From positions 1,071-65,070 of the IMG/VR virus record IMGVR_UViG_3300047408_000076: 64,000 nt of DNA; one strand, 5' to 3'. Made by a program: the position numbers and the translations under genes. The DNA comes from a virus. This document shows, one piece after another, positions 22,310-64,000 of this stretch; position 1 is the first letter of the stretch; every line of letters begins with the position of its first letter. The notes beneath the pieces are model-generated. The model was not told where the DNA came from and searched no databases. It saw nothing but the letters and a program-made list of their open reading frames with translations.

Positions 22310-23083
22310 ATGAAGAAGCTTCTAGCTACGACCGCGCTCCTGGCGGTCTTCACCCTCCCCGCTGCCGCCAGCACCGTCACGCTGGGCGGTCAGACCTGGG
22401 ACACCACCAACTCGGGCAGCCTGAGCCTCGGCAACGTAGTGCCGGCCGGCAATCAGCCGCAGAACGCCCCGTGCGTGATCTGCGGTGCCAACCAGCCACA
22501 ACAGCCGGCAAACTTCGGCTACAACGACTACCAGAACGGCGGCAATCTGACGGCGGCTACCGCCTTCTCCGACCAGGGTTCCGGTGGCAGGAATACACTG
22601 TCCAACAACACCATCGGTTCGGTGAACCCAGGCTACCAAGTCGGCGCGGGGAGCGCTTTCCTGGCCTACCTACTCGCCAACAACGATACCAGCCTCGGGT
22701 TCAGCATCGGCGTGGACGTGAACGATAACGGCAACGCGCAGACACTGAACGCCTTCTACTTTCTCGACTACACGACACACACCGTGCTCGCCAGCTTCAC
22801 TGGCGGCGCGACCGGCAACGTGCCGTCGGTTCACAACGGCACCGGGCTCCCGGACTACAGCATCACCGGGGCGCTGCTCAACTTGAACGATGTCCACCTG
22901 GGCGACACGATTGGCTTCGTGGCGATCATGACCGGACTAAACGATGGCCCGGACAGCTTCTTTATTGAAGCTGCCCCGGCGGTGGCGCAGACTCCGCTGC
23001 CGGCCTCGCTGCCGTTTATGCTGGCGGGGCTCGCTGGGCTCTACGGCCTAACCAAGAGGAAGAAGCCTGTTGTTAAGGCTTGA
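22310..23083 (+). CDS. Secreted protein with PEP-CTERM / VPLPA-CTERM-like sorting tail
   Basis: Signal peptide MKKLLATTALLAVFTLPAAA; C-terminal TPLPASLPFMLAGLAGLYGLTKRKK (motif, TM helix, basic cluster); SD GAGGA. Confidence 0.8.
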   Translation: MKKLLATTALLAVFTLPAAASTVTLGGQTWDTTNSGSLSLGNVVPAGNQPQNAPCVICGANQPQQPANFGYNDYQNGGNLTAATAFSDQGSGGRNTLSNNTIGSVNPGYQVGAGSAFLAYLLANNDTSLGFSIGVDVNDNGNAQTLNAFYFLDYTTHTVLASFTGGATGNVPSVHNGTGLPDYSITGALLNLNDVHLGDTIGFVAIMTGLNDGPDSFFIEAAPAVAQTPLPASLPFMLAGLAGLYGLTKRKKPVVKA

Positions 23084-23327
23084 GGTGGTTGTCGCCGTCG
23101 CGTTGATGGTGGCCACCGTCATCCTTTTGGCACTCGTGATCTAAAGAGGTAGGCTGACTTGCTCCCGCTCGTCAGCGTACAGGCCCGCCGGGATGATCCC
23201 GCCATCCATCGGCATCCCGCCCGGCGGGCCACAGATTGACCGGCAAGGTGCCCCCTAGTCGGTCATAGGCCCACCGAGTCCCGACCACCATTGAGCCCGG
23301 TGGGCCGCCCATTCTTCGAGGTACACC

Positions 23328-23561
23328 ATGAATATTCCGATTGGCTGGTTCCTGCGAGCGTGGGATCGCTTCGGTGACTGGGCGTGCGTGCCCCTCAGAC
23401 ATAGCGGCAAGATCACCCGGTTCGATGTACTGTTCGCCATCAGTATCGTTGGTGTGGGTGCGGGCGCTTGGTACACGGATGGCTTGGATGGCTTCGTAAA
23501 GACGGAAGCCTCGGTCGCATTCGGGTATTTCGGTTTGTGGTTGTTGATGCCCAAGACATGA
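23328..23561 (+). CDS. Small membrane protein
   Basis: Two hydrophobic segments; SD GAGG. Confidence 0.45.
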   Translation: MNIPIGWFLRAWDRFGDWACVPLRHSGKITRFDVLFAISIVGVGAGAWYTDGLDGFVKTEASVAFGYFGLWLLMPKT

Positions 23562-24121
23562 GCGGTATGAGCATCGGTCGTGGCCATTTTTGGTATGGCG
23601 ATTATCCGTTTGTTGATCCAGATTTTGACGACGAGTGGAGCGACTGCGAGTTTCTCGCGCACGAAATTGAAATGACCGGCGCGGCCGAATTGCACCCTGA
23701 CGGCTTTTGCCACGACCTCGACGTGGTGCCATTGGTCAGCCGGCAATATACTGAGGGCATTGTCGCCGAGCTAAAGAAGCGCGAGTGGGCGCAGCACCTC
23801 AAGGACCGCAAGGCATGGCAGGAGCAGCACGAACACGAGCGGGAACTCCGGTCGCGCGCACTCGACATGCGGAACCTTGAGGTCACGCAGGCGCAACTGG
23901 ACGAGGCGCTGAGCGAGCTTCCGGCAGGGGAGCGGCCGCCGAGTATTCTCGCCGAGATGAAGCCGCACGATCCGCTCGCGCCCGGACAGGGCCGGGTCGT
24001 GGGCGACTATGTGATGATTCGCGAGCAAGATCGCGCCGTCTGGGCCGGCGATCCGGGGCGCGCCCGCCTGCCGCTGGTCTGGCAGGGGAGGGGGCTCCTC
24101 ATCTTCCGGCTGCGGTCCTGA
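23558..24121 (+). CDS. Hypothetical protein
   Basis: ATGA overlap at 23558; 187 aa with a coiled segment. Confidence 0.55.
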   Translation: MSGMSIGRGHFWYGDYPFVDPDFDDEWSDCEFLAHEIEMTGAAELHPDGFCHDLDVVPLVSRQYTEGIVAELKKREWAQHLKDRKAWQEQHEHERELRSRALDMRNLEVTQAQLDEALSELPAGERPPSILAEMKPHDPLAPGQGRVVGDYVMIREQDRAVWAGDPGRARLPLVWQGRGLLIFRLRS

Positions 24122-24319
24122 CCCCCCGGAACCCGGTCACCATTGCCATATGGATGGACCATTGGCCGTTTGTTTGGGCCATAAAGGCCATTTCGCCGCT
24201 AGTGCGCCTCCGGGCCGGCCCGGCTACCGGGGAGGCCCGGAAAAAAGGACGCGCCAGCGGCCCGCGCTGGGGCTTGGCGGGGCCTCCTATGGGCTTGCGG
24301 GATTCCGGCCTCCGGGCTT

Positions 24320-24510
24320 TCCGGGGCGGATTCGTGCCTCCCGGACGCGGGGCGGACGCGGGGCGGGGAAAGATAGACTCGCAAGCGAATATCTTGGCGC
24401 GGCCCGGAGCGGGGCCGGTGCGGCTTGGCGCGGGGAGCGGGGAGCGGGGCCGCGCGCGGTGCGGCTTGGCGCGACCCGGTGCGGGTCTCCGGGATTCGGG
24501 GCTCCCGGTG
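24320..24510 (+). repeat. G-run low-complexity tract (left), G-quadruplex-prone
   Basis: About 9 GGGG runs on the + strand, built from GCGGGG(A/C), GGCTTGGCGCG and GGTGCGG words. Confidence 0.7.
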
Positions 24511-24539
24511 AAGCGGACAATTTGGCCTAGTGAATCAAG

Positions 24540-24569
24540 TTGCAACGCGCGGAAAAATTTGCCATATAT
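24540..24569 (+). promoter_or_regulatory. Putative sigma70-type promoter for the AAA/vWA module
   Basis: TTGCAA-N17-CATATA, close to the rhizobial RpoD consensus TTGAC-N17/18-CTATAT; followed directly by GAGTC. Confidence 0.55.
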
Positions 24570-24778
24570 GAGTCCACCTTCGGGTTGCAAGCGGCGCGCC
24601 AATGCGCCCCCGATACCGGAGGGAAAGGACTCGGAGCGCTCCCGCATTAGATTGCGGACTCGTTGCTCCGATAGCCTGACAACGGACTCGCGCTAATGCG
24701 GGGAGGTTGTGAAGCGGCGGAACAAGCCGGGGCGCGCGTTGCGACTCGGTGAAACAAAATCCGCCAATGACTCCTAAC

Positions 24779-24879
24779 GTGAACACTAAGAGGGCCGCGC
24801 GCGTTGCGGCCCTTCATAGTGTCCATACGGATGCTCCCGGCTTGCTACCGGGCCTTTCCCAGATGAGGAGTCTAAAACA
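24779..24879 (+). ncRNA. Structured ~100-nt leader element, copy 1
   Basis: Long hairpin GTGAACACTA-AGAGGGCCGC/GCGGCCCTTC-ATAGTGTCCAT, then hairpin CCCGG-CTTGCTA-CCGGG, then SD GAGGAG. Confidence 0.7.
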
Positions 24880-25896
24880 ATGGCAGTAAATCAAGAGCAT
24901 GAAATCACGATATCGGAAGCGGCCGTCCGCTTAGAGATTCTAACGGACGCGGGCGACTCCGTTATGCTTTGGGGCGCGCCCGGAATCGGCAAGTCCGATA
25001 TCGTGCATCAATTGGGGGCGAAAAAGGGCCGCAAGGTAATTGAGTTCCATGCGGCATTGCGGGAGACGGTAGACCTTCGGGGAATCCCGGTTCCAGATTT
25101 GGCAACGGGCAAGACTCGATGGCTCATTCCCGATGAGCTTCCCAATGCGGAACGCGACGGGGAACACGGGTATTTATTTTGCGATGAAATCAATCAAGCT
25201 TCACCGCAAATGCAAGGAGTCCTTGGCGGACTCATTCTCTATGGCACAATTGGCGATTACAGACTCCCGGCCGGATGGCGGGTTATTGCCGCTGGCAATC
25301 GAGTCTCTGATCGCGCGGCCGCGCAAAGAATGCCGACTCATATGCGCAATCGGTTCGCTCATCTATTCATAGCACCCGACGTTAATGCGTGGTGCCAGTG
25401 GGCAAACGCGAATCGAGTCGCCCCGGAGGTTGTCGCGTTCGTCCGCTTGCGGCGCGAATTGATTCACCTAATGCCGAAGGGCGACGAAAATGCTTTCCCG
25501 ACTCCCCGCTCAATTACCAAAGCGGCGAAATACGTGAGCGCTCCGAAAGAGCATCGCTTGTCACTATTCGGGGCTTTGATTGGCGACGCGGTAGCGGCGG
25601 AATTGGACGGTTTTCTAGAGCTTTACCGTTCACTCGGTTCGCTGGACGATATCATAGCGAATCCGGCCGGTGCGCCCGTTCCTACGGAACCGTCATGCCG
25701 CTTTGCGGTCTGCACCGGGCTTGCTCGCATGGCCTCCCGCAAAAACTTTGGCGCGATCATTGACTACGCCAAGCGCTTGAACCGCGAGTCCGAAATCTTG
25801 CTGGTAACGGACGCAACGGGGCGCGATGAGAGTCTGAAAAATACTGCGCCATACGGGCAATGGGCGGTAGCCAATCAAGATTTGACAATCCAATGA
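24880..25896 (+). CDS. MoxR-type AAA+ ATPase
   Basis: Walker A WGAPGIGKS, Walker B LFCDE, AAGNR sensor I, RNRF arginine finger, FPTPRS sensor II. Confidence 0.9.
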   Translation: MAVNQEHEITISEAAVRLEILTDAGDSVMLWGAPGIGKSDIVHQLGAKKGRKVIEFHAALRETVDLRGIPVPDLATGKTRWLIPDELPNAERDGEHGYLFCDEINQASPQMQGVLGGLILYGTIGDYRLPAGWRVIAAGNRVSDRAAAQRMPTHMRNRFAHLFIAPDVNAWCQWANANRVAPEVVAFVRLRRELIHLMPKGDENAFPTPRSITKAAKYVSAPKEHRLSLFGALIGDAVAAELDGFLELYRSLGSLDDIIANPAGAPVPTEPSCRFAVCTGLARMASRKNFGAIIDYAKRLNRESEILLVTDATGRDESLKNTAPYGQWAVANQDLTIQ

Positions 25897-26054
25897 TTCA
25901 GCAAATCTTGATCTATGCGGCATATCTTTGCGGCATTGCCGCGTTTGGTTATGTCGCGCACCGTCGCGGCCATAACGGATTTTATTGGGGCTTGCTCGCG
26001 CTCCTGATAACTCCGCTTTTCGCATGGCCGCTTCTAAAACGGAGGCCAGAGTGA
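25893..26054 (+). CDS. Small two-TM membrane protein (53 aa)
   Basis: ATGA overlap; TM-HRRGHNGFYW-TM with terminal PL motif and basic tail. Confidence 0.6.
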   Translation: MIQQILIYAAYLCGIAAFGYVAHRRGHNGFYWGLLALLITPLFAWPLLKRRPE

Positions 26055-26150
26055 ACACTACAGAGTCGCCCTTCGGGGCGATTCGATAGTGTCCATACGG
26101 ATGCTCCCCGGCTTGCTCCGGGGCCTTTCCCAGATGAGGAGTCTAATACC
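26051..26150 (+). ncRNA. Structured ~100-nt leader element, copy 2
   Basis: Same lower stem; different upper stem GAGTCGCCC/GGGCGATTC capped by a C-UUCG-G tetraloop; 3' part nearly identical to copy 1. Confidence 0.75.
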
Positions 26151-27041
26151 ATGACAACAACAACTAAAATTGCGTCCCCTCTTTCCCGCAAGGCTACGCT
26201 TGTGGCCGTTAAAATCGGCGGATGGTCCGCGCGCAAATTAGACCGTGAAATCACAGCGGAGACGAACGCGCGGCACAATGCTTCGGCGGACGCGGGACGC
26301 TACAATAAGTTGCTGATCAATACGGAACGACTCGCCAAGCTCACGTCCCTCGCATCGCAAGCCCGGACGCTGCACTATTCCCTAACGAGTCCATGGGCGG
26401 ATGAGGGCGCGCGCGTTCTCCCCAATGCGTTCTATTCCAAGTTCACCGATGAGTTTAGAATCTTAAAGCGGGAGTTTAGTGCAGCGGCGGATGAGTTCGC
26501 ACGCGATTATCCCGCGTTCGTTCAAGAGCGAAAAGCGCAATTGAACGGTGCTTTCAAGGAGTCCGATTATCCTTCCGCTTCGGAGATTCGCGGCAAGTTC
26601 CGGCTTGAAATCGCGGTGCTTCCGTTCCCGGACGCGGCGGACTTCCGCTCCGATTTGGACGATGACACCGTGGCCGATATCAGGGCGGAGATTGAAGCGA
26701 CTTCGGGCGCGGTGCTGCAAGACTCTTTGAAGGACGCGGCAGAACGTATCATCAAAAAAGTCGGACATATGGCCGCGAAGCTTAAGGAATATAAGACTGG
26801 CAAGCCCGGTGAACGTAAGTTTTTCGCGGACTCGCTTGTGGAAAATGTCCGCGAGCTTGCGGCAATGCTCCCGGCTTTCAATCTTGCGGACGATGCGGCA
26901 TTGACTGCCATAACGGAGCGAATTGAAAAAGAGTTGTGCGCGGAGGACGCACAAGCGCTCCGGGATAACGACTCCGCCCGCGAGTCCGTCGCAAAATCGG
27001 CGGACGATATTGTAGCGGAGGTTTCAAAGTTTTTAGCCTAA
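26151..27041 (+). CDS. DUF3150-like helical protein
   Basis: 296 aa with TSPWADEGARVLP and DYPSASEIRGKF motifs; typical partner of AAA/vWA pairs in phages and ICEs. Confidence 0.55.
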   Translation: MTTTTKIASPLSRKATLVAVKIGGWSARKLDREITAETNARHNASADAGRYNKLLINTERLAKLTSLASQARTLHYSLTSPWADEGARVLPNAFYSKFTDEFRILKREFSAAADEFARDYPAFVQERKAQLNGAFKESDYPSASEIRGKFRLEIAVLPFPDAADFRSDLDDDTVADIRAEIEATSGAVLQDSLKDAAERIIKKVGHMAAKLKEYKTGKPGERKFFADSLVENVRELAAMLPAFNLADDAALTAITERIEKELCAEDAQALRDNDSARESVAKSADDIVAEVSKFLA

Positions 27042-27138
27042 GCCCTACTAAGCGGAGTCCCAATGGGACTCCGTCATAGTGTGGCCAAAGCCCCGCTCCC
27101 CGGCTTGCTCCGGGGCCTTCAATCAAGAGGAGTCCAAT
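27042..27138 (+). ncRNA. Structured leader element, copy 3 (diverged)
   Basis: GCCCTACTA/TAGTGTGGC lower stem, CGGAGTCCC/GGGACTCCG upper stem, CCCCGG-CTTGCT-CCGGGG hairpin, SD GAGGAG. Confidence 0.7.
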
Positions 27139-28656
27139 ATGAATCTCGACTCGACGACAACGGACGAACGCGCGGCATATCGTGTTATGCAGGCCCGTTC
27201 CGCCCTGATCAAAGCTCGCCGATTCTACGGTGTATTGGTTTCAAATGTGGAACCCGTAGCATCGCGACAATTCCCGACAATGGCAACGGATTCAAAGCGT
27301 CACTTCTATAATCCCGATTTTGTTGCGACACTGACTCAAGAGCAATTAGAAGCGGTGCAAGCTCACGAAACGGAGCATGACGCGCGGCACCATTCGACGC
27401 GGCGCGGGAATCGCGACCCGCAAGAATGGAATATCGCTTGCGACCTTGCGATTAATCCTGACTTGAAGGCGGAAGGATTCAAGCTCCCCGATTGGGTGCT
27501 ATTCGAAGAACGGTTCCGGGGAATGTCCGCCGAAGACATATACCGGACGCGCGAGCTAGACCGGCAAAAGCAAAATCCGCCACCGCCTCCGCCGACTCAA
27601 AAGGGCGACGATGAGGAATCCGAATCTGGACTCGAACAAGCCGACACTAATCCGGGCGGGAATGAGGGCGAGTCCGATGAGGGCGACGAGTCCGAAGGCC
27701 CCGCCGGCCCCGATGAGGGCGACGATGAGGGCGACGATGAGGGCGACGGGGAGGCCGGCCCCGGTGAAGGCCCGGAGGGCGACGGGGAGGGCGAGTCCGA
27801 AGGCCCCGCCAAGGGCGACGGGGAGGCCGGTGAAGGCCCCGCCGAAGCCGGGGAGGCCGGGGACGCTGGCAACGGTGCGGGCGACGGTGAAGGCCCGGAG
27901 GGCGACGGGGAGGCCCCGAAGGGCGAACCGCGTTCGTCCGGTGATCCCGGCCGGTGCGGGGAGGTTTTAGACGCGGGCGAATCGGCCGGCGAAAAAGCGG
28001 AGACTGACCAGAAATGGGAAAGGATAGTGCGCCAAGCCGCTTCTATGGCACGGGGAATCGGGCAACTCCCCGGCCACATTTCCCGCGACATTGAACGGGC
28101 GAATAATCCGCCGCAAGATTGGCGGGAGGTTCTCCGGGCTTGGTTTGATCAGGGGTCGCTTTGGGTTGAGTCCTGGAACCGGCCCAATCGTCGCTTTGCG
28201 GGCGCGGGCTTGTACCTTCCGGGGCGGCAACGCGACGGACTCAATCGAGTCGCGTTCATAATTGACACAAGCGGGTCGATGGACAATGTGGCATTGCAAT
28301 TGATCAGGAATGAAACGCAAGCCGCTTTGGACGATGGCGCAATAGATGAGGTTGTTTGCATCTATGGTGACACACAAGTAAATCGGGTGGACACTTGGCG
28401 CACGGGCGATGAAATGATTTTCGACCCGCGCGGCGGCGGCGGAACGGTGCTTCGTCCGCTTTTCGACTACGTTGCGGAACAAATAGACGATGCTTCCCTA
28501 ATCGTTTGTTTCACCGATATGGAAATAGATGATTTGGGGCCGGAGCCTCCCGCTTGTCCGGTGCTATTCGCCGCGACGGGCTATCCTGACAGAGTCCGTT
28601 ATTATCTTGAAAACGCCCCATGGGGCGCGCCCGGAATCGATATCGGGGCGCACTAG
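27139..28656 (+). CDS. Putative metallopeptidase + vWA-like protein (DUF2201-type)
   Basis: N-terminal HETEH (HExxH), WNIACD..IN, acidic Gly/Glu/Asp/Pro linker, C-terminal IDTSGSM (MIDAS DxSxS), GGGGT and FTD. Confidence 0.85.
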   Translation: MNLDSTTTDERAAYRVMQARSALIKARRFYGVLVSNVEPVASRQFPTMATDSKRHFYNPDFVATLTQEQLEAVQAHETEHDARHHSTRRGNRDPQEWNIACDLAINPDLKAEGFKLPDWVLFEERFRGMSAEDIYRTRELDRQKQNPPPPPPTQKGDDEESESGLEQADTNPGGNEGESDEGDESEGPAGPDEGDDEGDDEGDGEAGPGEGPEGDGEGESEGPAKGDGEAGEGPAEAGEAGDAGNGAGDGEGPEGDGEAPKGEPRSSGDPGRCGEVLDAGESAGEKAETDQKWERIVRQAASMARGIGQLPGHISRDIERANNPPQDWREVLRAWFDQGSLWVESWNRPNRRFAGAGLYLPGRQRDGLNRVAFIIDTSGSMDNVALQLIRNETQAALDDGAIDEVVCIYGDTQVNRVDTWRTGDEMIFDPRGGGGTVLRPLFDYVAEQIDDASLIVCFTDMEIDDLGPEPPACPVLFAATGYPDRVRYYLENAPWGAPGIDIGAH

Positions 28657-28660
28657 ACGC

Positions 28661-28696
28661 AAGGGCCGGCCCCGCAACGGGCCGGCCCTTTTTTTT
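28661..28696 (+). terminator. Rho-independent terminator after the vWA gene
   Basis: 12-bp perfect stem AAGGGCCGGCCC/GGGCCGGCCCTT plus T8. Confidence 0.9.
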
Positions 28697-28699
28697 GTC

Positions 28700-28860
28700 C
28701 GCGCTCCGGGCTTGGCGCGCGCGGGGAGGCCGGTGCGGGGAGGCGGGGAGCGGGGAGGCCGGCGGGAGCGGGGAGGCCAGCGGCGCGCGCGGTGCGGGGA
28801 GCGGGGCCGGTGCGGGGAGGCCGGCCGGTGCGGGGAGCGCTCCGGGCCTCCGGGGAGTCG
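28700..28860 (+). repeat. G-run tract (right), 8 copies of GCGGGGAG, G-quadruplex-prone
   Basis: GCGGGGAG at 28721, 28735, 28743, 28750, 28768, 28794, 28812 and 28830; shares an 18-mer with the left tract. Confidence 0.8.
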
Positions 28861-28891
28861 CGCCGCGAATTGGACCATACCATTGAACGTC

Positions 28892-28930
28892 AAAGGCCCG
28901 CTCCGGGGAACCGGGGCGGGCCTTTTTTTT
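28892..28930 (+). terminator. Second rho-independent terminator
   Basis: Stem AAAGGCCCGCTCCGG/CCGGGGCGGGCCTTT, GGAA loop, T run. Confidence 0.85.
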
Positions 28931-29183
28931 GTCCCGCTTGCTACAGGACAAAAGAGGAGTCGCTAATCTTTCGATTGGCAATGGCAATGGTACGCGCACC
29001 GCTCCGCCAAAGCAACAGCTAAAGGATTCTCACATTGTGAGCGGAGCAATGTCGGAAAGATTTTCACATTGCATGGCGACCAATAGTTCTTGCATTTCGG
29101 AAAAATATTCCATACACAATGTTTGATTGATTGAAGCGAATGAGGTCGCGCACGGGATATCGCGACGCGGAGCAAACAAACAA

Positions 29184-29402
29184 ATGACAGCGCAAGAATA
29201 TCTCGAAGCGATTCAACGTCTCGGGTTGAGCAAAGAACAGGCTGCGGAATTTATGGATATTGCAGGGCGCACGTCGAGGAATTACGCGACAACGGGGCCG
29301 CCGGTTGTTGTTGCTATGCTTCTGCGCGTGATGCTCGCGGAGGGCCTGAGCGTAGATGACGTTAATCTCATTATGCGTAGATCAGAAAGGAAGCGGAAAT
29401 GA
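29184..29402 (+). CDS. XRE/Cro-like HTH transcriptional regulator
   Basis: AIQRLGLSKEQAAEFMDIAGRTSRNY helix-turn-helix pattern. Confidence 0.7.
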   Translation: MTAQEYLEAIQRLGLSKEQAAEFMDIAGRTSRNYATTGPPVVVAMLLRVMLAEGLSVDDVNLIMRRSERKRK

Positions 29403-31617: not shown

Positions 31618-31995
31618 ATGCGCGATCTTCACGAGCTTGACGGTCACCGTGTAGATTCCAGTGAGCATTTTGGCTGGAGTGGCGATGGAAGCTGCGGCAT
31701 GTTCAAGTTGCCTTCGCCAATCGATGGGCAATCGCTGCGCGTGATCGCTTCGAGCGCAAACGGCTGGGATCACGTCTCCGTCTCACGTCAATCACGGGTG
31801 CCGAATTGGCCTGAGATGGATTTGATCAGGCGCAAGTTCTTCAAAGATGACGAGTGCGTGATGCAGCTTCATGTGCCGCTGACTGAGCATATCAATTATC
31901 ATCCACATACTTTGCATCTTTGGCGACCGCAGCACGTCGAGATACCGCGCCCACCTTCGTGGATGGTGGGGCCGTCAAAGGAGATGCCGAAATGA
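31618..31995 (+). CDS. Conserved phage protein (DUF7694-like)
   Basis: GWDHVSVS...P.W.EM...FF...ECVMQ.H...N.HP.TLHLWRP motif. Confidence 0.65.
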   Translation: MRDLHELDGHRVDSSEHFGWSGDGSCGMFKLPSPIDGQSLRVIASSANGWDHVSVSRQSRVPNWPEMDLIRRKFFKDDECVMQLHVPLTEHINYHPHTLHLWRPQHVEIPRPPSWMVGPSKEMPK

Positions 31996-32309
31996 TGAGC
32001 GAGAGCTTAAAGCATAACATTACTGCCATGAGGCAGACCCAGCAAATGCCGTCCTTCGTGCAAGTGTTGGTGACATTTGAAGCGGCGCTAGAGGAGATTG
32101 AGCAATTGCGCGCGGCGCTCAATAATCTTGATGCCTGCGCTGTTCCTACTGCGGAGCAAATCGAGCAAATGGAAAAAGGAATGGGTGCAATCTTCACACC
32201 GGCGATGGCGCTGAAACTTGGGATGAAAACAGCAATTGGAAACGTGAAACGCGCCATGGCCGCCATAGAGCGCGGCCCACATACGGAAAGTGCGAAGGAG
32301 GGGAAATGA
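31992..32309 (+). CDS. Hypothetical coiled-coil protein
   Basis: ATG 31992; EIEQLR motif. Confidence 0.5.
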   Translation: MMSESLKHNITAMRQTQQMPSFVQVLVTFEAALEEIEQLRAALNNLDACAVPTAEQIEQMEKGMGAIFTPAMALKLGMKTAIGNVKRAMAAIERGPHTESAKEGK

Positions 32310-32629
32310 GGTGTACTCATGAAGTCCATGAGATGGACACGGCGGCAGTAGCGGATGGCTTTTGCCCACTTTGCCTCGCGGCCGAGATCGAGCAACTGCG
32401 GGCCGACAAGGACGTGATCCGCTCGCAGAATGCTGCTTACGAGCGCGGGATTGATATGCTGGAAATTGGCATTGACCTGCGAGACGCCGAGATTGACCGG
32501 CTGCGGGTGGCGCTCAGAGAAGCGGAAGATCGGCTTGCAACGGCTTTATCTGGAGGTGAAATTTGTACAGGTTGCCTCGATGTTGCCTTGACTAATATTC
32601 GCGCCGCCCTGGAGCAGAAATTCCCATGA
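32306..32629 (+). CDS. Hypothetical coiled-coil protein (ead/ea22-like mosaic)
   Basis: C..C motif, EIEQLR/EIDRLR repeats. Confidence 0.5.
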   Translation: MRCTHEVHEMDTAAVADGFCPLCLAAEIEQLRADKDVIRSQNAAYERGIDMLEIGIDLRDAEIDRLRVALREAEDRLATALSGGEICTGCLDVALTNIRAALEQKFP

Positions 32630-33105
32630 GCTACGCCAGCCTGATTGAGCCGTTACGTGCCGAACGCGATGACCTGATGAAGGTCAACGCGCTGTTGCAC
32701 GCGCTTATCGGCAACCGCGAGGTCGAGATCGAGCGGCTGCGAGCCGCGCTCAAGGAAATCAAGGATAATGGCTATCGTGCCGCTTTATGCCATGCGGTAG
32801 CAAAAACCGCCCTGGAGCAAATCCCCATGACCATTCGCGAGCTTCCCCAGAAGGAAGCGGTGGTCGAGATCGAGCGGCTTAAGGCCGACAAGGACGTGAT
32901 CCGCTCGCAGGAACGCAATGCTGCTTACGAGCGTGATATTGCTGCGCTGGAGACCGAGATCGAGCGGCTGCGGACGGTGCTCAAGGACGGATGGTCAACA
33001 TTGGCGCGATTCAACGTCAAGAGCTACCACCATACTTTGGTAACGCTACAGGTGCGGTTACTGGCTGGCCTGGAGCAATCAAACATGAAAGGACAAGACC
33101 TATGA
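32626..33105 (+). CDS. Hypothetical coiled-coil protein, probable fusion of two cassettes
   Basis: Three EIERL repeats; shares DNA blocks with the previous gene. Confidence 0.5.
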   Translation: MSYASLIEPLRAERDDLMKVNALLHALIGNREVEIERLRAALKEIKDNGYRAALCHAVAKTALEQIPMTIRELPQKEAVVEIERLKADKDVIRSQERNAAYERDIAALETEIERLRTVLKDGWSTLARFNVKSYHHTLVTLQVRLLAGLEQSNMKGQDL

Positions 33106-34620: not shown

Positions 34621-34656
34621 GGCCATCCTCAGAAATGAGGGTGGCCTATTTTTTTT
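34621..34656. terminator. Terminator between convergent genes
   Basis: Stem GGCCATCCTCA/TGAGGGTGGCC with GAAA loop and T8. Confidence 0.8.
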
Positions 34657-35182
34657 ACAGCGCCAACTCAGCCTGTACATTCACGTTGCCATCCTTGGAG
34701 ATGGGCGCGCGCGGCCGGTGCGGAACCCCAAGCCGGTCAACACGCGGGCGACGGCTCTTGCCCGGTTTAACCTTCGCACCCGCCTTAATCTCCGCGTTAC
34801 GGCGGCCGTTGAGCTTGCTGCGGTGGGCCAGTGTGCGGCCCTTGGTTGGTTTGGATAGCGTAATGATTTGCGATTGGCATTTCTTCTCGACATCAAACTT
34901 GTCGATTATCTTGCGCACCGAAGTCCTGATGATGAAATGCTCAGCGTGCGCCTCGTCGTCGTCTGTGGCTTTGAAAACCACATAAGCGTCAAGCCCGGAC
35001 CCGACATAAACGTCAGCAACATCCTTGTGCCGGCGGATACCTTTCGCAAGCACGCAGGAGTGTGGATCGCTTTGGACCGCCTTGCGCCGATCCGACTTGT
35101 AGGTCTTAAAGGCCATATCGTACTTTGCTTCCCGCAACGGGTACTCCGTTCCGTCTGGGGCTGTATAGATTCTCGGTTTCAT
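34655..35182 (-). CDS. Hypothetical basic protein
   Basis: ATG at 35182 with SD GGAGG upstream on the - strand. Confidence 0.6.
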   Translation of the reverse strand: MKPRIYTAPDGTEYPLREAKYDMAFKTYKSDRRKAVQSDPHSCVLAKGIRRHKDVADVYVGSGLDAYVVFKATDDDEAHAEHFIIRTSVRKIIDKFDVEKKCQSQIITLSKPTKGRTLAHRSKLNGRRNAEIKAGAKVKPGKSRRPRVDRLGVPHRPRAPISKDGNVNVQAELAL

Positions 35183-35699
35183 GGAAATCCTCCGTCTCGC
35201 GGCTGTGAGCCACCATGCACTTCGGCCAGCCGCATAGCCTCGTCCGCACATGGTGGGCGAATCACATACTGCGGCCAATCTGGCCACGAGTCAAAATTTT
35301 TTGCACAACCCCGAAAGATGGGACTCGACTCCCGTCCGGGAATCGGCTTCCATAACTAACAAGCCCGCTCGGCAGGAACCGGAGCGGGCTTGAAAGAGCG
35401 GCAGCTTTTCCAGCGAACTGCCGCGCGTGCCAGACACGAAGTTGATAGCTTCTGTTGGCGTGACACACGAACTGGGATTTCGCATGTACCTCTCAAATAA
35501 CGTAGCTTTACGACAAACGCAAGACCTCGCGGGGCCATCTTGGCCGTCCCCACTAGGTGTTGCGTCAGTTGAGTGACATAGCGGGCCGCTGGCGAAAGCT
35601 GGCGGCCCGTTTTGCGTCCGGGATTGATCAACCGGAGCCATGGGGTGTTTTCCAAGCGTAGCTGGGTTCCCCACCCCGGCGCGATTGCGAAGCCGTGCC

Positions 35700-35870
35700 C
35701 ACCCCTCTCTCTCCTCTCTTACTTAAGAGAGTCCTTCTCTTAACTGCCTCTCAACAAAGGAAGATTCAAATGTTGAAACTCAGAGTCAACCAAGAGTCAC
35801 TTCTACCTCGGTAGACCTCTTTCTTTCTTGGACTCTCAACGGACTCGGAGCCGCGCGAGTCCAAAAATCG
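35700..35870. promoter_or_regulatory. GANTC-dense, purine/pyrimidine-skewed noncoding segment; candidate replication origin
   Basis: 7 GANTC sites in 35729-35861 plus CT tracts, upstream of the helicase operon. Confidence 0.4.
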
Positions 35871-45855: not shown

Positions 45856-46308
45856 ATGGCGAAGGCATCGAGGAAGGCCGCCCCGAAGGCGGCCGCGAAG
45901 GCGCGCGGCAAGAAGGGCGAAGCCAAGAAGGCGTTCCCGTTGGTTGGCAGGAACGACCTCAACCGGCTACTGGAGCAAGCCGCGATTCTCAAGAACCGCG
46001 CAGCGAGCGCCAACGGTTCTCGCAGCGAACTGATCGGCACCTATGTGACGAAGAAGCATCTGCATGCCGGGGCTTTCCGCTCCATCAGCCGGCTGTGGAA
46101 GCTCGGTCAGGACGATCCGCAGAAGCTGTGGCTGGAACTAGCCCACTTCGATGATATGCGCGAGAAGGCCGGCCTCGACCGAATGGCCAAGGAGCAGGGC
46201 CAGCTTCTGCCGGCAATCGAGGACGGCGAGGAATCGAAGCCCGAGAAGGCTGAGAAAGTCGTGAGCTATCCTCGTGAGGTCGAGGAGCGGGCGGGTGATG
46301 CGGCATGA
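45856..46308 (+). CDS. GapR/DUF2312-like DNA-binding protein with basic N-terminal tail
   Basis: SD AGGAGG; L..L......L......S.L....V.K.H.H..AFR....L.K...P.K...L..FD......GL helical pattern resembles GapR-type proteins. Confidence 0.5.
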   Translation: MAKASRKAAPKAAAKARGKKGEAKKAFPLVGRNDLNRLLEQAAILKNRAASANGSRSELIGTYVTKKHLHAGAFRSISRLWKLGQDDPQKLWLELAHFDDMREKAGLDRMAKEQGQLLPAIEDGEESKPEKAEKVVSYPREVEERAGDAA

Positions 46309-47279
46309 GCTTTCGCACAACCCCAGGACAACAGCTTGCTCGGACAAGCGCCCGCCACGACGGGCGCGATCTCGAAAGCTTTGATCCAAAACGCTATCAC
46401 CGCAATCAGATTGTCCATGATGCGATCATCAAGGAGGCCAAGCTGCGTTTTAACGAGACGTTTCGCGAGTACGGACTTGAGGAGGCAAAGAAAATCAAGG
46501 AATGGGACACGCTGCACCGAGCAGCCGCCGACAAGCTCGCCGAGCAGCAATTGTTCGTTGGGTGGTGGCAGGCGAATGTCACCATCGGACACGGAGCCGG
46601 ACGTGGAAATAAAAAGAGCCGGGTTCCCGGCGCTTTTTCCTTGAGCGAAGCCGAGCGCCTCACCGGCATGAAGCATCAGCGGGTATCAGAGCTTGGCAAG
46701 CGACTTCAGGACGAGGCCGCGTATTTTCGGCATCTGGTGGGCGCTGTGTATTTTGCGGCGTTTCTGGAAATCCCACCGACGCGCGGTACGATGGGGACCG
46801 GCGAGAACGAATGGTTCACGCCGGAGTCTTACATAACGCTTGTGCGCAAGGTGCTCGGCGGAATCGATCTTGATCCAGCGACGAGCGCTGTGGCGCAAAA
46901 GATAGTCCGCGCCAGAAAATTCCACACTGAGGAAACAGACGGGCTCAAACATAATTGGCGCGGGCGCGTGTGGCTCAATCCGCCATATGGGCAACCGACA
47001 ATCCAGAACTTCGTTTCTAAGATGGTGGCTGAGTACAAAGCCAAGCGAGTGATTGCCGCCATCATGCTCACGCACAATTTCACCGACACAACTTGGTTTC
47101 ACGACGCCGTCAATACCGCCAAGGTGATCTGCTTTACGCGCGGTCGCGTCAAGTTCTACAAAGCTGATGGAAGCATCGCTGCGCCAACGCAGGGACAAGC
47201 ATTCTTTTACTTCGGCCGCAATCCTGCGCGATTCATCAAGGCATTCAAGGAAGTCGGATTCATTGTGAGGCTGACGTAA
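46305..47279 (+). CDS. DNA N6-adenine methyltransferase (phage Dam-like) with N-terminal extension
   Basis: NEWFTP, IDLDPATS, DGL...W.GRVWLNPPYG, GRVKF. Confidence 0.85.
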   Translation: MSFRTTPGQQLARTSARHDGRDLESFDPKRYHRNQIVHDAIIKEAKLRFNETFREYGLEEAKKIKEWDTLHRAAADKLAEQQLFVGWWQANVTIGHGAGRGNKKSRVPGAFSLSEAERLTGMKHQRVSELGKRLQDEAAYFRHLVGAVYFAAFLEIPPTRGTMGTGENEWFTPESYITLVRKVLGGIDLDPATSAVAQKIVRARKFHTEETDGLKHNWRGRVWLNPPYGQPTIQNFVSKMVAEYKAKRVIAAIMLTHNFTDTTWFHDAVNTAKVICFTRGRVKFYKADGSIAAPTQGQAFFYFGRNPARFIKAFKEVGFIVRLT

Positions 47280-52124: not shown

Positions 52125-54434
52125 TTGAGCACGCAAGCGCACGAGATCGTCTACCGGCGGCCGCCGCTCTATGACAAGCAGCGGGAGGCCATGTTCGATC
52201 CGGCGCGCATCTCACTGATTGAGGCGTCGACCAAGAGCGGCAAGACGGTCTCGGGCATCATCTGGCTGTACGAGCAAGCCATGATGGGCAAGCCTGGGCA
52301 GAATTTCTGGTGGGTTGCGCCAGTTTCGATGCAGGCGCGCATCGCGTTCAATCGCATGCGGCAGAACTTCCTCGATCAGGACGGGCGACCGATCTTCACG
52401 GTCAATGCCACTGACCACACGCTGACCAACGCGCGCGGTGCAGTGATCGCGTTCCGCTCTGGCGATCATCCTGACTGCTACGATGACCAGACCGATGTGC
52501 TGACGCAGCGAGGATGGATACCGTTCTCGGAACTGGTCGATAGCGACAGCATCATGACCCGCTCGCCTGCGGGGGAGGCGCAGTGGCAGAAGCCGACGCG
52601 GATCGTGCGCCATTTCTACGACGGCGAGATGGTTTCAATTCAGAACAGCCGCATCAGCTTGCGGGTCACGCCGCATCACCGGATGCTGGTCGAGCGCAGG
52701 CGCAAGGACGGGCTCAAGGAGCTATGGACGCGGGCCGATGAACTGAAGCCGCATGACAGCATCCCGGCCCAAGCAAGCTGGGTTGGCGTGGACGATCCAG
52801 CGATCACGGAGGATCAGTGCGCGCTACTTGGGTTCTATCTCGCCGAGGGATCGGCGCTTGGCAATGCGAGTAGCGAAGAGAAGGCGCGGGCGCTCACGGC
52901 AAGGATGGGATACCGCATCTTCTTCGCGCAGACAGCGGGCGTGAAGGGCGGCAACAAGGGCGATGTGCGAACAGCTTTTGCTGATCTACTGACGCGCATG
53001 AATTATCATGTGCGAGAGCGGCGAGATGGCCTGCTGATCTGGGACAAGGCACTGTGGGCGAAGCTGATCGCTCTTGGCAACAAATACACCAAGACGATCC
53101 CGCAGAAGATCAAGGACCTTCCACCGCACAAGCTGCGCGTGCTGTTGCACTGGATGATCTTGGGCGACGGCACAAGCAGGACGACGGTTGGCGGTTTGGA
53201 TGATCTGACCTATGCGAGTGCAAGCAAGCGGCTTGCCGACGACGTGCAGGAGATCGCGATCAAGTGCGGCCTCTCCGCGACGATCAAGACCAAGCCAACG
53301 GTGGCCTATCCGCGCGCAGGCGCGAGACCGTCAGGTTACCCGCTCTACATCGTTCGCATTCATTCGCCGCGCTCGCATCATCTGTCGTCCTCGAAGTGCG
53401 GGCGCTATTACGGCAAGGTCGGCTATCGCGGTATGATCTACTGCGCCAGCGTTCCCAACACGTGCATGTTGGTACGACGTGAAGGCAAGCCGTGCTGGTC
53501 GGGCAACACGCTCTATGGTGAAGATGTCTATGCCTGTGTGATTGACGAGGCGTCGCGCTTCAAGGAAGAAAGCTGGCACGCGATACGTTCGACATTAACG
53601 GCGACGCGCGGGCCGATCCGCATCATCGGCAACGTCAAAGGCCGCAAGAATTGGTTCTACCAGCTCGCGCGGCAGGCTGAGCAAGGACTTCCGAATCTTG
53701 CGTACCACAAGCTCACGGCATGGGACGCGGTCAATGCTGGCGTGCTCACCAAGGAAGAGATCGCGTCGGCCAAGGCGATGCTGCCCGAGCAAGTGTTCCG
53801 CGAGCTGTATCTCGCTGAGCCGAGCGACGACGAGGGCAATCCGTTCGGTGTGCAGCACGTTCGCGCATGTCTTGCGCCGCTTTCGGAGCGGCCGGCAATC
53901 GCATGGGGTTGGGACCTCGCGCGCAAGCAGGACTGGACGGTCGGCATCGGTCTCGATGCTGATGGGCGCGTGTGCGAGGCATTTAGGTTTCAGAAGCCAT
54001 GGCACGAGCAAGTCGAAATCATTAAAAAGTTCGTGGGCAACTCTCCAGCCCTGGTGGACGAGACAGGTGTTGGCGATCCGATCGTGGAGGCGATCAAGCT
54101 GCCGGTGCGCAAGGGCAGCAACGGAGCCGAGGTTATCGAGCTGAGCTGCCCGAGGCTTGAAGGCTATCGCTTCACCACGGCCAGCAAGCAGATGCTGATG
54201 GAAGGGCTGGCGCTGGCGATTCACGAGCGCAAGATTCGTTTCCCTGAAGGCCCGATCTCGATGGAGCTGATGAACTTCGAATATGAGTTCACGCGGCTCG
54301 GCATCAGGTACGGTGCGCCTCCTGGCATGCACGACGATTGCGTCTGTGCGCTCGCGCTGGCGTGGCGCTGCTTCGACAATAGGAAGCTGGCCTACGATCA
54401 GGACCTGTCATGGATCAGCGGTGACGACAAATGA
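52125..54434 (+). CDS. terL: Terminase large subunit containing an intein
   Basis: EASTKSGKT Walker A, VIDEA Walker B, IIGN motif, nuclease GWDLARKQDWTV and HDDCVCALALA. Confidence 0.9.
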   Translation: MSTQAHEIVYRRPPLYDKQREAMFDPARISLIEASTKSGKTVSGIIWLYEQAMMGKPGQNFWWVAPVSMQARIAFNRMRQNFLDQDGRPIFTVNATDHTLTNARGAVIAFRSGDHPDCYDDQTDVLTQRGWIPFSELVDSDSIMTRSPAGEAQWQKPTRIVRHFYDGEMVSIQNSRISLRVTPHHRMLVERRRKDGLKELWTRADELKPHDSIPAQASWVGVDDPAITEDQCALLGFYLAEGSALGNASSEEKARALTARMGYRIFFAQTAGVKGGNKGDVRTAFADLLTRMNYHVRERRDGLLIWDKALWAKLIALGNKYTKTIPQKIKDLPPHKLRVLLHWMILGDGTSRTTVGGLDDLTYASASKRLADDVQEIAIKCGLSATIKTKPTVAYPRAGARPSGYPLYIVRIHSPRSHHLSSSKCGRYYGKVGYRGMIYCASVPNTCMLVRREGKPCWSGNTLYGEDVYACVIDEASRFKEESWHAIRSTLTATRGPIRIIGNVKGRKNWFYQLARQAEQGLPNLAYHKLTAWDAVNAGVLTKEEIASAKAMLPEQVFRELYLAEPSDDEGNPFGVQHVRACLAPLSERPAIAWGWDLARKQDWTVGIGLDADGRVCEAFRFQKPWHEQVEIIKKFVGNSPALVDETGVGDPIVEAIKLPVRKGSNGAEVIELSCPRLEGYRFTTASKQMLMEGLALAIHERKIRFPEGPISMELMNFEYEFTRLGIRYGAPPGMHDDCVCALALAWRCFDNRKLAYDQDLSWISGDDK
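52476..53507 (+). mobile_element. Intein with LAGLIDADG homing endonuclease (344 aa)
   Basis: N-terminal CYDDQTDVLTQRGW, block B TPHHRML, LLGFYLAEGS and LLHWMILGDG blocks, C-terminal WSGN followed by Thr. Confidence 0.9.
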
Positions 54435-62708: not shown

Positions 62709-64000
62709 GCGATCCGACGGGCACGGCTGGACTTCGCCGCTCATTCCTCGCTGAGGGCAATCGGCGACTCGGGCAGCTTCGCTCGCAGACGCATACGATT
62801 CTGGTCGAGCGCGACCTCATGGCCGCGAAAAACGACCCCTTGGCGCAGCTAATGCCGAATCCGGGCCACAGGCTTTCTGCTTTCACTGGATGGTTCGAGC
62901 GCACGGCGACGGCGCTGTTGGTAGGCGAGGATTGGTGGTCGCGCTTCCTGGCGCGCGCGCAGGAATCGGGAACCAGGGCGAGCGCGGCTTTGATTGGAGT
63001 GTCGCCGCACGGTCAAGTGCCGGTGCCTGCCGTCTATCGCGAGATGGTTCAGCGCGAGTTCGAGGGCATTGCAGCGGCGATGGTGCAGCAAGTCTCGCGG
63101 CAGGCGGGCAATGCGGCAATCGCGGGGAACAAGCCTCTGCCAATGTATCGTGCAGTGCTCAGCGTTCTGCGTAAGGTTGGTGAAGCTCGTGTGAGGGCGA
63201 CGGTCAACACGACCACGGTGCAACTGCACAATGCGGCGCGGCTCATGCAGTACCGTGCGGCCGGCATCGCGCAAGTTGGTATCGTTCCTGAAATTCCTGA
63301 GCCGGCGCGGTCATCGCCGTTCGGTGCGCGGCGAACGTCACACGATGCGAATCCCTATCACGATCCGCATGGGCGATTCACGACGGGCGGAGGCGCTGGA
63401 GGGAGCGGAGGCGAAGGTGGCGCTGCGGCGGTAACCAAGACGCCAGCCTTCAAGAACTGGTTCGGTAAGAGCAAGGTCGTCAATCCTGATGGCTCGCCGC
63501 GCACTGTCTATCACGGCACGACGACGCCAGAGGACTTCCACCACTTCTCGGTCGGCGAGCCGGTGGAAGACCCGACCGGCGAGTATCACCGGAGCGGTAG
63601 CGGCTCCGACCCACGCACGTTTCTCGGCAGTCATTTTGCGCAGGAGCCGCATGTCGCCAATAAGTTCGCCCAAGGGCTCTATGGCGAGCGCGCTGGTCGA
63701 TCTGAGGGTGGTCGCGTGCTGCCGGTCCATTTGCGTGTCGAGAATCCGCACGTCTCAAGCGACAGCAAGATGCTAAACGAAATGATGCGAGGCAATTACA
63801 ATCACCATGACATTGACGCTGCGCTTGATGAGCATGGTGACATCGAAGAAACCGGACCAAAGTACGACAGCGACCCGAATTATCGCGAGGAAATCAATCA
63901 AAGAGCGATTGATATGGGTCAGCAGGCCGACGAGCCTGATCACAGCTTGGCGCAGGAAATGGCGCAGCAGTATCGCCAGAAGCTTCAGGAAAAAGGTCAC
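62705..64000 (+). CDS. MuF-like head morphogenesis protein fused to an ADP-ribosyltransferase-like (ART-PolyVal-type) domain, 3' truncated
   Basis: Not in the ORF track (no stop in window). Hand translation: MSDPTGTAGLRRSF...DANPYHDPHGRFTTGGG...TPAFKNWFGKSKVVNPDGSPRTVYHGT...SHFAQEP.VA..FA...VLPVHLRVENP. Confidence 0.75.
   Translation, partial: MSDPTGTAGLRRSFLAEGNRRLGQLRSQTHTILVERDLMAAKNDPLAQLMPNPGHRLSAFTGWFERTATALLVGEDWWSRFLARAQESGTRASAALIGVSPHGQVPVPAVYREMVQREFEGIAAAMVQQVSRQAGNAAIAGNKPLPMYRAVLSVLRKVGEARVRATVNTTTVQLHNAARLMQYRAAGIAQVGIVPEIPEPARSSPFGARRTSHDANPYHDPHGRFTTGGGAGGSGGEGGAAAVTKTPAFKNWFGKSKVVNPDGSPRTVYHGTTTPEDFHHFSVGEPVEDPTGEYHRSGSGSDPRTFLGSHFAQEPHVANKFAQGLYGERAGRSEGGRVLPVHLRVENPHVSSDSKMLNEMMRGNYNHHDIDAALDEHGDIEETGPKYDSDPNYREEINQRAIDMGQQADEPDHSLAQEMAQQYRQKLQEKGH

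Follow-up and report, generated by a model that had tools for sequence, protein, structure and literature searches.

Why should some 5 kb of a phage genome be written in a DNA vocabulary different from that on either side? The question is raised by an island at 24,122 to ~29,100 of a 64,000-nt stretch (the window: positions 1,071 to 65,070 of IMGVR_UViG_3300047408_000076, a 75,675-bp virus record from a soil metagenome), which an earlier note, made from the letters alone, had described as rich in GANTC and poor in CAG/CTG and GATC. We confirmed that the island is a real, sharply bounded module at the DNA level, and observed nothing comparable among >30 homologous modules and the sampled backbone relatives. 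The explanation that we favour, at a probability of roughly 45%, is that the island is an accessory operon cassette that was shaped in another phage lineage and then imported into the present backbone. Studies of selection on DNA words in phages usually take the whole genome and look for avoidance; in the present case, two words are avoided and a third is enriched almost to saturation within a single 5-kb operon. The encoded proteins are ordinary and homologues >85% identical can serve as unmodified controls, which makes the locus a clean natural experiment.

Short-word usage in the island

We write GASTC for GAGTC/GACTC, CWG for CAG/CTG and GAWTC for the remaining GANTC forms, and refer to the genome outside the island as the backbone. 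Counted per kb across the whole window, GANTC rose to 8–18 at 24–29 kb compared with ~1–8 (one bin 9) elsewhere, except for a cluster at 35–36 kb, and CWG fell to 6–13 compared with 21–56 elsewhere. The island as a whole contains 44 GASTC sites where ~4 are expected (about tenfold more; ~1 per 114 bp). CWG and GATC occur at 0.27 and ~0.3 of the backbone rate, respectively, a purge of about fourfold. GANTC in all its forms amounts to 69 sites (13.9 per kb), 47 of them within the three large open reading frames (ORFs). The 25 GANTC sites previously counted by hand in 24570–25900 were reproduced exactly, and the hand counts of 33 CAG+CTG and 7 GATC in the three large genes were also recovered.

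For a coding control, synonymous codons were permuted in such a way that the protein and the codon usage of every gene stayed the same. Against these shuffles, the three large genes had 29 GASTC (10.3 ± 2.4 expected; z score 7.9), 33 CWG (63.0 ± 4.8; z score −6.2) and 7 GATC (14.0 ± 2.9), and their 18 GAWTC did not differ significantly from expectation (15.0 ± 3.0). The bias persists under codon-preserving shuffling and is therefore not an effect of amino-acid content. The description of the island as GANTC-rich has to be narrowed accordingly: it applies to GASTC but not to GAWTC, which stays within the backbone range. The spacer control, dinucleotide-preserving shuffles of the 1,395 bp of non-coding island DNA, gave 15 GASTC (1.3 ± 1.2 expected), 9 CWG (34.3 ± 4.4) and no GATC (5.1 ± 2.0). 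We considered GASTC as a by-product of CWG and GATC avoidance and rejected this, because fixing both words at their observed lows left the expected GASTC at 10.6; the enrichment is thus independent of the purge.

Expressed as a share of the synonymous opportunities, GASTC is realised at 43–48% in the island genes, compared with a median of 5% (maximum 22%) in 31 backbone genes and 0–8% in the homologues from other phages. For CWG, the share is 8–9% in the island versus 21–42% in the backbone, and for GAWTC it is 20–38% in the island, with a backbone range of 0–50%. The 44 GASTC sites divide equally into 22 GAGTC and 22 GACTC, all three frames are occupied and, as the earlier note had held, the bias spans both coding and non-coding DNA. 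The bias therefore belongs to the double-stranded DNA itself rather than to translation or RNA. Short words kept in genome-wide excess include HIP1 of cyanobacteria, DNA uptake sequences and Chi; like them, GASTC greatly exceeds its expected frequency whatever the frame or orientation, extends into non-coding DNA and entails the use of rare codons, but it is limited to 24.1–29.1 kb and 35.3–35.9 kb.

Codon and dinucleotide usage set the island apart as well. Gln is mostly CAA (31 of 35 codons, 89%) and Leu shuns CTG (8 of 86), both as noted earlier; AGC (4%), ACC (9%), AAC and CAC are shunned, and AAT stands at 79%. The GC content is similar in island and backbone (0.60 and 0.59), again as claimed, GC content at third codon positions is 0.61 versus 0.71, and the dinucleotide signature delta* reaches 189 compared with at most 76 in non-overlapping 5-kb windows of the backbone. 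Both edges are sharp. On the left, the final CWG of the dense series (24118) coincides with the stop codon that ends the preceding gene, which places the edge within 24119–24255; on the right, CWG density resumes at 29188, at the beginning of the next gene, and the edge falls within 29016–29188.

Other descriptions of the pattern were tried and rejected. A regular, lattice-like spacing of GANTC was not found (coefficient of variation (CV) 0.85, P = 0.12), the sites being randomly spread and not clustered. GASTC is not part of a longer core motif, as its flanks just mildly favour S on each side and CGAGTCCG occurs eight times, three of them in a coding repeat. A generic purge of palindromes was also rejected: only CWG and GATC are clearly low, AATT and CATG are depleted more weakly, and 6-bp palindromes show no shortage relative to the backbone. 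As regards the earlier proposal that the segment avoids defence motifs, CWG and GATC are purged but 4- and 6-bp palindromes in general are not. CWG is a trinucleotide for which we know of no cognate enzyme.

Integrity of the assembly

An island of this kind could be an assembly artefact, i.e. a chimeric contig joining two phages, and some features of the source run would suit this: its contigs break within both G-rich tracts of the island, and two short contigs across 28529–29036 have lower depth (2.9 and 3.55). However, a 1,790-bp contig of the same run (22538–24327) extends across the left edge, the right edge is covered by short contigs with zero mismatches, and contig depth is alike in the island (8.2–8.7) and the backbone (9.2–10.7). 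In addition, identical island and backbone pieces co-occur, with matching depth, in three further soil metagenomes, which come from different studies. With these observations, a chimera is barely credible.

Organisation of the operon

Judged from its sequence, the island is one predicted self-contained operon, with the genes for an AAA ATPase, a 53-aa ORF, a DUF3150-like protein and a vWA/metallopeptidase protein all on the plus strand. The first gene (24880..25896) encodes a 338-aa MoxR-type AAA+ ATPase (Pfam AAA_5, E 4.6e-6; PHROG 1297 'ATPase', E 8e-78), whose gene takes up 11 of 23 synonymous opportunities for GASTC and 11 of 122 for CWG. Homologues are widespread in phages, N4-like phages included, and one copy in an N4-like Pseudomonas phage (28% identity) is annotated 'N4 gp24-like protein'. 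A putative gene of 53 codons with hydrophobic stretches follows (25893..26054), its start overlapping the AAA stop (ATGA); it does not resemble the 62-aa ORF found at the equivalent place in the related locus L011. The next protein (296 aa; 26151..27041) is DUF3150-like by a Pfam match (E 1.7e-4) that lies below the curated cut-off, and has 473 homologues, the nearest at 73% identity; in its gene, 7 of 15 opportunities for GASTC and 9 of 114 for CWG are used. The last protein (505 aa; 27139..28656; PHROG 1314) combines a putative metallopeptidase domain (Pfam DUF2201_N, E 5.6e-40, with an HETEH motif) and a vWA-like domain (DUF2201, E 1.1e-11), linked by an acidic Gly/Glu/Asp-rich repeat, and contains internal 12-nt periodic repeats (family D1). 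In this gene, 11 of 26 GASTC and 13 of 163 CWG opportunities are taken up.

Each large gene is preceded by a leader of ~100 nt, which consists of a variable hairpin, a conserved hairpin and the ribosome-binding word GAGGAGTC. Copy 1 lies at 24775–24879. Copy 2 (26046..26150) shows the arrangement in full, with the variable hairpin followed by AGTGTCCATACGGATGCT, the hairpin CCCCGGCTTGCTCCGGGG and the ribosome-binding word, and includes repeat families D9 and D11; copy 3 (27034..27138) contains the perfect hairpin GGAGTCCC-AAT-GGGACTCC. Alignment and consensus folding of the three leaders gave 25 predicted pairs, four of them with compensatory changes. No Rfam family scored above threshold in 23–37 kb, and the leader word CCCAGATGAGGAGTCTAA had no exact match in viral contigs.

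The upstream non-coding part (24122..24879, plus strand) holds, besides leader copy 1, a first G-rich repeat tract (about 24200–24510; repeat families D6, D8, D16 and D19) and a row of sites, namely GAGTC at 24570 and then five GACTC in the same orientation at 24628–24769. No sigma-70-type promoter was detected upstream of the operon. At its other end, a terminator scan found two strong intrinsic terminators on the plus strand (28661–28698 and 28892–28933), between which lies a second G-rich repeat tract (about 28700–28860; families D3, D4, D6 and D19). The two tracts bracket the operon and have the exact 17-mer GAGCGGGGCCGGTGCGG in common. Beyond the terminators, 28950..29100 (plus strand) contains the right edge of the island, with an orphan GAGGAGTC ribosome-binding word followed by a 15-codon ORF only. 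This orphan word may be what is left of a gene that came next in a donor operon, because in relatives the next gene, which has the same kind of ribosome-binding word, directly follows the vWA gene. A tblastx search for gene remnants in the spacers returned low-complexity noise only.

Homologous modules and relatives of the backbone

The module itself is a known type. An AAA_5 ATPase beside a vWA-domain protein occurs in the same gene order in >20 related loci, and the island shares AAA_5, DUF3150 and DUF2201_N plus DUF2201 with the phage MoxR-AAA/vWA pair (N4 gp24-like; MoxR-like ATPase of cyanophage S-TIM5). What distinguishes the island is its vocabulary, since ordinary words were found in every other member examined. 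In viral and metagenome contigs, about 20 homologues of the AAA gene (30–88% protein identity) have 0–2.8 GASTC and 22–38 CWG per kb, in contrast to 10.8 of each in the island AAA gene, and across >30 homologous modules overall the words were ordinary. The bias is absent from these modules, so the gene family as such does not account for it. The module was also examined in 13 bacterial loci (AAA 41–49% identity), which were likewise GANTC-poor with ordinary CWG. As 13 of 13 bacterial genomes with a related AAA gene are Hyphomicrobiales, an alphaproteobacterial link is plausible from the homology.

Relatives of the backbone, identified by large terminases 67–70% identical, have 0.6–0.85 GASTC, 1.7–2.7 GAWTC, 8.5–10 GATC and 34–40 CWG per kb. 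They share the backbone vocabulary, so the island words are not a trait of the backbone lineage. A blastn search of the island against the GenBank phage collection gave no match. For cultured relatives, searches of the same collection with the large terminase and the AAA protein gave matches of at most 36% identity, from which the host cannot be inferred; in viral contigs, relatives of the proteins flanking the island reach only 36–59% identity. In ~1.6 Mb of other viral loci, no 1-kb window combined a GASTC excess with a CWG purge of island strength, and among ~200 loci returned by two 14-base patterns there was no GANTC-saturated genome, although one of them belongs to a contig poor in CWG over its full length (see below).

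The ribosome-binding word of the island, GAGGAGTC, is not used by the backbone and resembles GGAGTCAC of the module relatives. In loci L010, L011, L001 and L008, GGAGTCAC stands 3–6 nt before the ATG of many early genes (e.g. L011:9991, 11285, 12270 and 13872), and it supplies a large share of the GASTC sites in these otherwise GANTC-poor loci. It has no extended match to the 16S rRNA tail past GGAG.

Proposed import of the cassette

The double-stranded footprint of the bias fits restriction, methylation or DNA-binding enzymes, and we infer that restriction- or methylation-type readers of double-stranded DNA are its cause. In the reading that we favour, selection on short, double-strand-symmetric words would have sculpted the DNA of the cassette during long residence in a different phage lineage or host regime, driving GASTC to nearly half its synonymous capacity and purging CWG and GATC about fourfold. 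Recombination would then have placed the cassette in the present backbone, at the junction between the late and early genes.

Import is suggested by the sharp edges at gene boundaries together with foreign codon and dinucleotide usage, by a ribosome-binding word that resembles that of the module family and is absent from backbone usage, and by the position of the module, which lies downstream of the helicase gene in relatives and upstream of it here. The orphan ribosome-binding word, a classic location for accessory DNA and the existence of lineages with a CWG/GATC purge point the same way. We also count toward import that the phage has a recombination pair, a RecT-family protein and a PDDEXK-like DUF3799 protein. 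Synonymous sites are saturated between the island genes and all relatives, which leaves ample time for the island lineage to have reached its own word usage. Morons and the lambda b region offer a parallel, with their own terminators, tail/early junction, atypical codons, sharp edges and varying position; they differ from the island in that its GC equals that of the backbone and its anomaly lies in specific short words. Nor does it look like a passive donor signature, as it enriches one word ~tenfold and fills nearly half of the available synonymous capacity. If import is true, the locus shows how long donor word usage persists in a mosaic phage genome.

That such a vocabulary can, in part, belong to an entire lineage follows from an unrelated 39.6-kb viral contig, IMGVR_UViG_3300048928_000218 (loci L132, L172 and L173), with 70% GC, in which CWG is shunned over the full length (~8–16 per kb versus ~37 expected). 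Relative to Markov expectation, CAG reaches 0.42 in this contig and 0.43 in the island; in the contig, 61% of Gln codons are CAA, 9% of Leu codons are CTG, and GATC occurs at 0.5 of expectation. At least one phage lineage thus shuns CWG genome-wide, and its host probably has something that targets CWG-containing words. The module is absent from this contig.

Several points weigh against import. The CWG-poor contig has no GASTC excess, so no known lineage combines both traits. A donor was not found among 5.8 billion proteins, where the nearest homologues (88% for AAA, 73% for DUF3150) were, in those examined, ordinary-worded. The comparison with backbone relatives covers the surroundings of the large terminase. 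The same synonymous saturation means that the date of transfer is not readable from the sequence. Finally, the backbone has a GASTC cluster of its own, nine sites in 570 bp at 35288..35861, between the minus-strand gene 34655–35287 and the helicase gene (Poisson P 2e-9 at the backbone rate); CWG content there is ordinary and some adjacent sites are 11 bp apart. Elsewhere in the backbone, GASTC stands at 0.74 of Markov expectation. This suggests that GASTC matters in the present host too, because the backbone concentrates the word in an early control region and otherwise avoids it. Import and a GASTC reader in the present host are mutually compatible, not exclusive.

Within the second cluster, 68 nt of non-coding DNA ahead of the helicase gene (35550–35617) are 80% identical to L001:465–533 in a relative, with the other flanks unalignable. 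This stretch may be a conserved control element or small RNA.

Possible reading of GASTC in place

The second cluster bears on another explanation, in which the island works where it is, as a dense GASTC array for a putative host or phage methylase, methyl-reader or DNA-binding factor; through the array, the operon would acquire an epigenetic or occupancy state of its own, or the reader would be titrated. Filling 45% of the opportunities by means of the rare codons GGA, CGA and AGT requires positive selection for the word itself, and a cluster in the early control region of a genome that under-uses the word elsewhere also speaks for this reading. Relatives put GACTC words upstream of the AAA gene, and the bacterial homologues of the module are all in Hyphomicrobiales, whose genomes have just 0.9–1.8 GANTC per kb, as published for Ensifer (PMC8725594). 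However, neither a candidate reader nor a matching methylase gene was found in the record, sites within the ORFs are placed at random, and the foreign dinucleotide and codon signature as well as the CWG/GATC purge are left unexplained. On balance, we regard a function in place as rather unlikely.

The specific form given to this idea in the earlier note, i.e. host CcrM methylation read by GcrA, did not hold up. CcrM is indifferent to the central base of GANTC. Solely GASTC exceeds the backbone, and GAWTC does not, so the CcrM reading is unsupported. The published GcrA consensus, YGAKTCK (PMC4647560), fits 14 of the 69 island sites, compared with a chance rate of ~25% and 29% in the backbone. 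GANTC sites are spread evenly inside ORFs and are not at promoters, so the tests of central base, flanking consensus and promoter position all fail. Moreover, the phage encodes neither a CcrM-type methylase nor GcrA, there being no match to PF01555, PF00145 (cytosine methylase) or PF07750 in the whole record. What the island shares with the CcrM/GcrA system is that GASTC is a subset of GANTC and that the bacterial relatives of the module all belong to Hyphomicrobiales; the G/C-centred form alone, the lack of favoured GcrA flanks, the intragenic sites and the missing CcrM and GcrA genes set it apart.

Both sides of the bias could be joined in a single scheme, with the GASTC array as a selected docking or methylation platform, CWG and GATC cleared against defence or against the phage's own Dam-type methylase, and one operon thereby held in a separate epigenetic state. 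We consider this combination clearly unlikely. If the readers of GASTC and CWG were found, soil bacteria could turn out to have a restriction, methylation or DNA-binding specificity not described before. Primase readings, with CTG as the start of host DnaG and GTC in GASTC as a T7-type site, were set aside as speculation; no Toprim primase was found in the phage.

The only DNA methyltransferase gene detected in the phage is of the Dam family (46305..47279, plus strand; Pfam PF05869, E 1.7e-18; PHROG 111). In a backbone relative whose large terminase is 67% identical, a ParB_N gene adjoins a PF01555 (N6_N4) methylase gene (L294:5533–6953). As that relative has a PF01555 methylase and the present phage only a Dam-family one, the type of methylase differs within the lineage.

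Entry order and mutation bias as proposed explanations

The other part of the earlier proposal took the island for a first-entering or immediate-early segment shaped to avoid defence targets; the purge would then reflect exposure of the segment before anti-defence genes act. In T5, restriction sensitivity is determined by motif avoidance confined to the first-step-transfer region. The same has been documented for the leading region of Autographiviridae (PMC12455610), which is a precedent for avoidance confined to part of a phage genome. The island also lies directly upstream of an early regulator and operator-like palindromes, which fits the order early, replication, late. As in the T5 and Autographiviridae regions, short palindromic words are purged regionally, beside early genes; the difference is that here a second palindromic word is strongly enriched alongside the purge.

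Nothing in contig depth or gene layout points to a genome end at 24.1 or 29 kb. Contig depth runs across 18–36.5 kb with neither doubling nor step, and the large-terminase and portal genes lie at 52–63 kb, >20 kb distant. The 127-bp overlap shared by the record termini, which might pass for a terminal repeat, arose in the assembly of a circular or permuted genome. The label 'FluMu gp28-like' that JGI gives to close homologues of the large terminase hints at headful packaging with permuted ends. Relatives carry the same operon in the middle of the early region, and the purge is restricted to CWG and GATC and does not extend to palindromes in general. Taken together, first entry is a very improbable explanation.

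A local, sequence-specific mutation or repair bias would dispense with selection, for example by deamination at methylated CWG or GATC, or by short-patch repair that makes GASTC. Short-patch repair from near-copies has been proposed for highly iterated palindromes. The word balance in the island has some of the expected features: the CWG deficit (59 below Markov expectation) is matched by excesses of CAA/TTG (+62) and TAG/CTA (+15), the GATC deficit (−24) is balanced by AATC/GATT (+22), and GAGCC/GGCTC, the C-to-T precursor of GASTC, is at 0.25 of the backbone rate. However, ~9 lost GAGCC are insufficient for ~40 extra GASTC, the codon shifts are often multi-step or transversions (AGC to TCC, C3 to A3), and the phage lacks a cytosine methylase. 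To our knowledge, no mechanism confines such a process to 5 kb with edges at gene boundaries, which also counts against it. We therefore hold a mutation or repair bias to be improbable.

Genome layout and further features

The island (24.1–29.1 kb) separates the tail genes, which extend up to ~23 kb, from the early block that begins with the early regulator at 29.1 kb. Replication and recombination functions follow at 36–47 kb, with the helicase gene (start 36107), the RecT-family protein, the PDDEXK-like nuclease-fold protein (DUF3799) and the Dam-family methylase, and a NusG-like antiterminator is encoded at 49 kb. Large terminase, portal and head genes occupy the genome from ~52 kb through the end of the record.

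The small gene next to the island (29127–29402) matches a PHROG family of transcriptional regulators, and the operator-like palindromic words CTCACATTGTGAG and TTTTCACATTGCATGG lie just upstream of it, at 29030–29075. Further into the early region, a 38–50-nt coding repeat (GAGATCGAGCGGCTGCG...) occurs in six copies at 32088–32987, spanning the adjoining ORFs 31920–32309, 32306–32629 and 32626–33105; two of the copies share 88% identity over 49 nt.

The large terminase (52125–54434) is 769 aa long and has an insertion of ~310 aa at residues ~149–460, within which residues 344–392 match LAGLIDADG_3. Homologues that are free of the insertion have ~425 aa and are 78–88% identical across both flanks. 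From these comparisons, the insertion is probably an intein or homing endonuclease. The ORF at 62705–63997, after the portal gene, contains an ART-PolyVal ADP-ribosyltransferase domain (Pfam E 3.5e-9).

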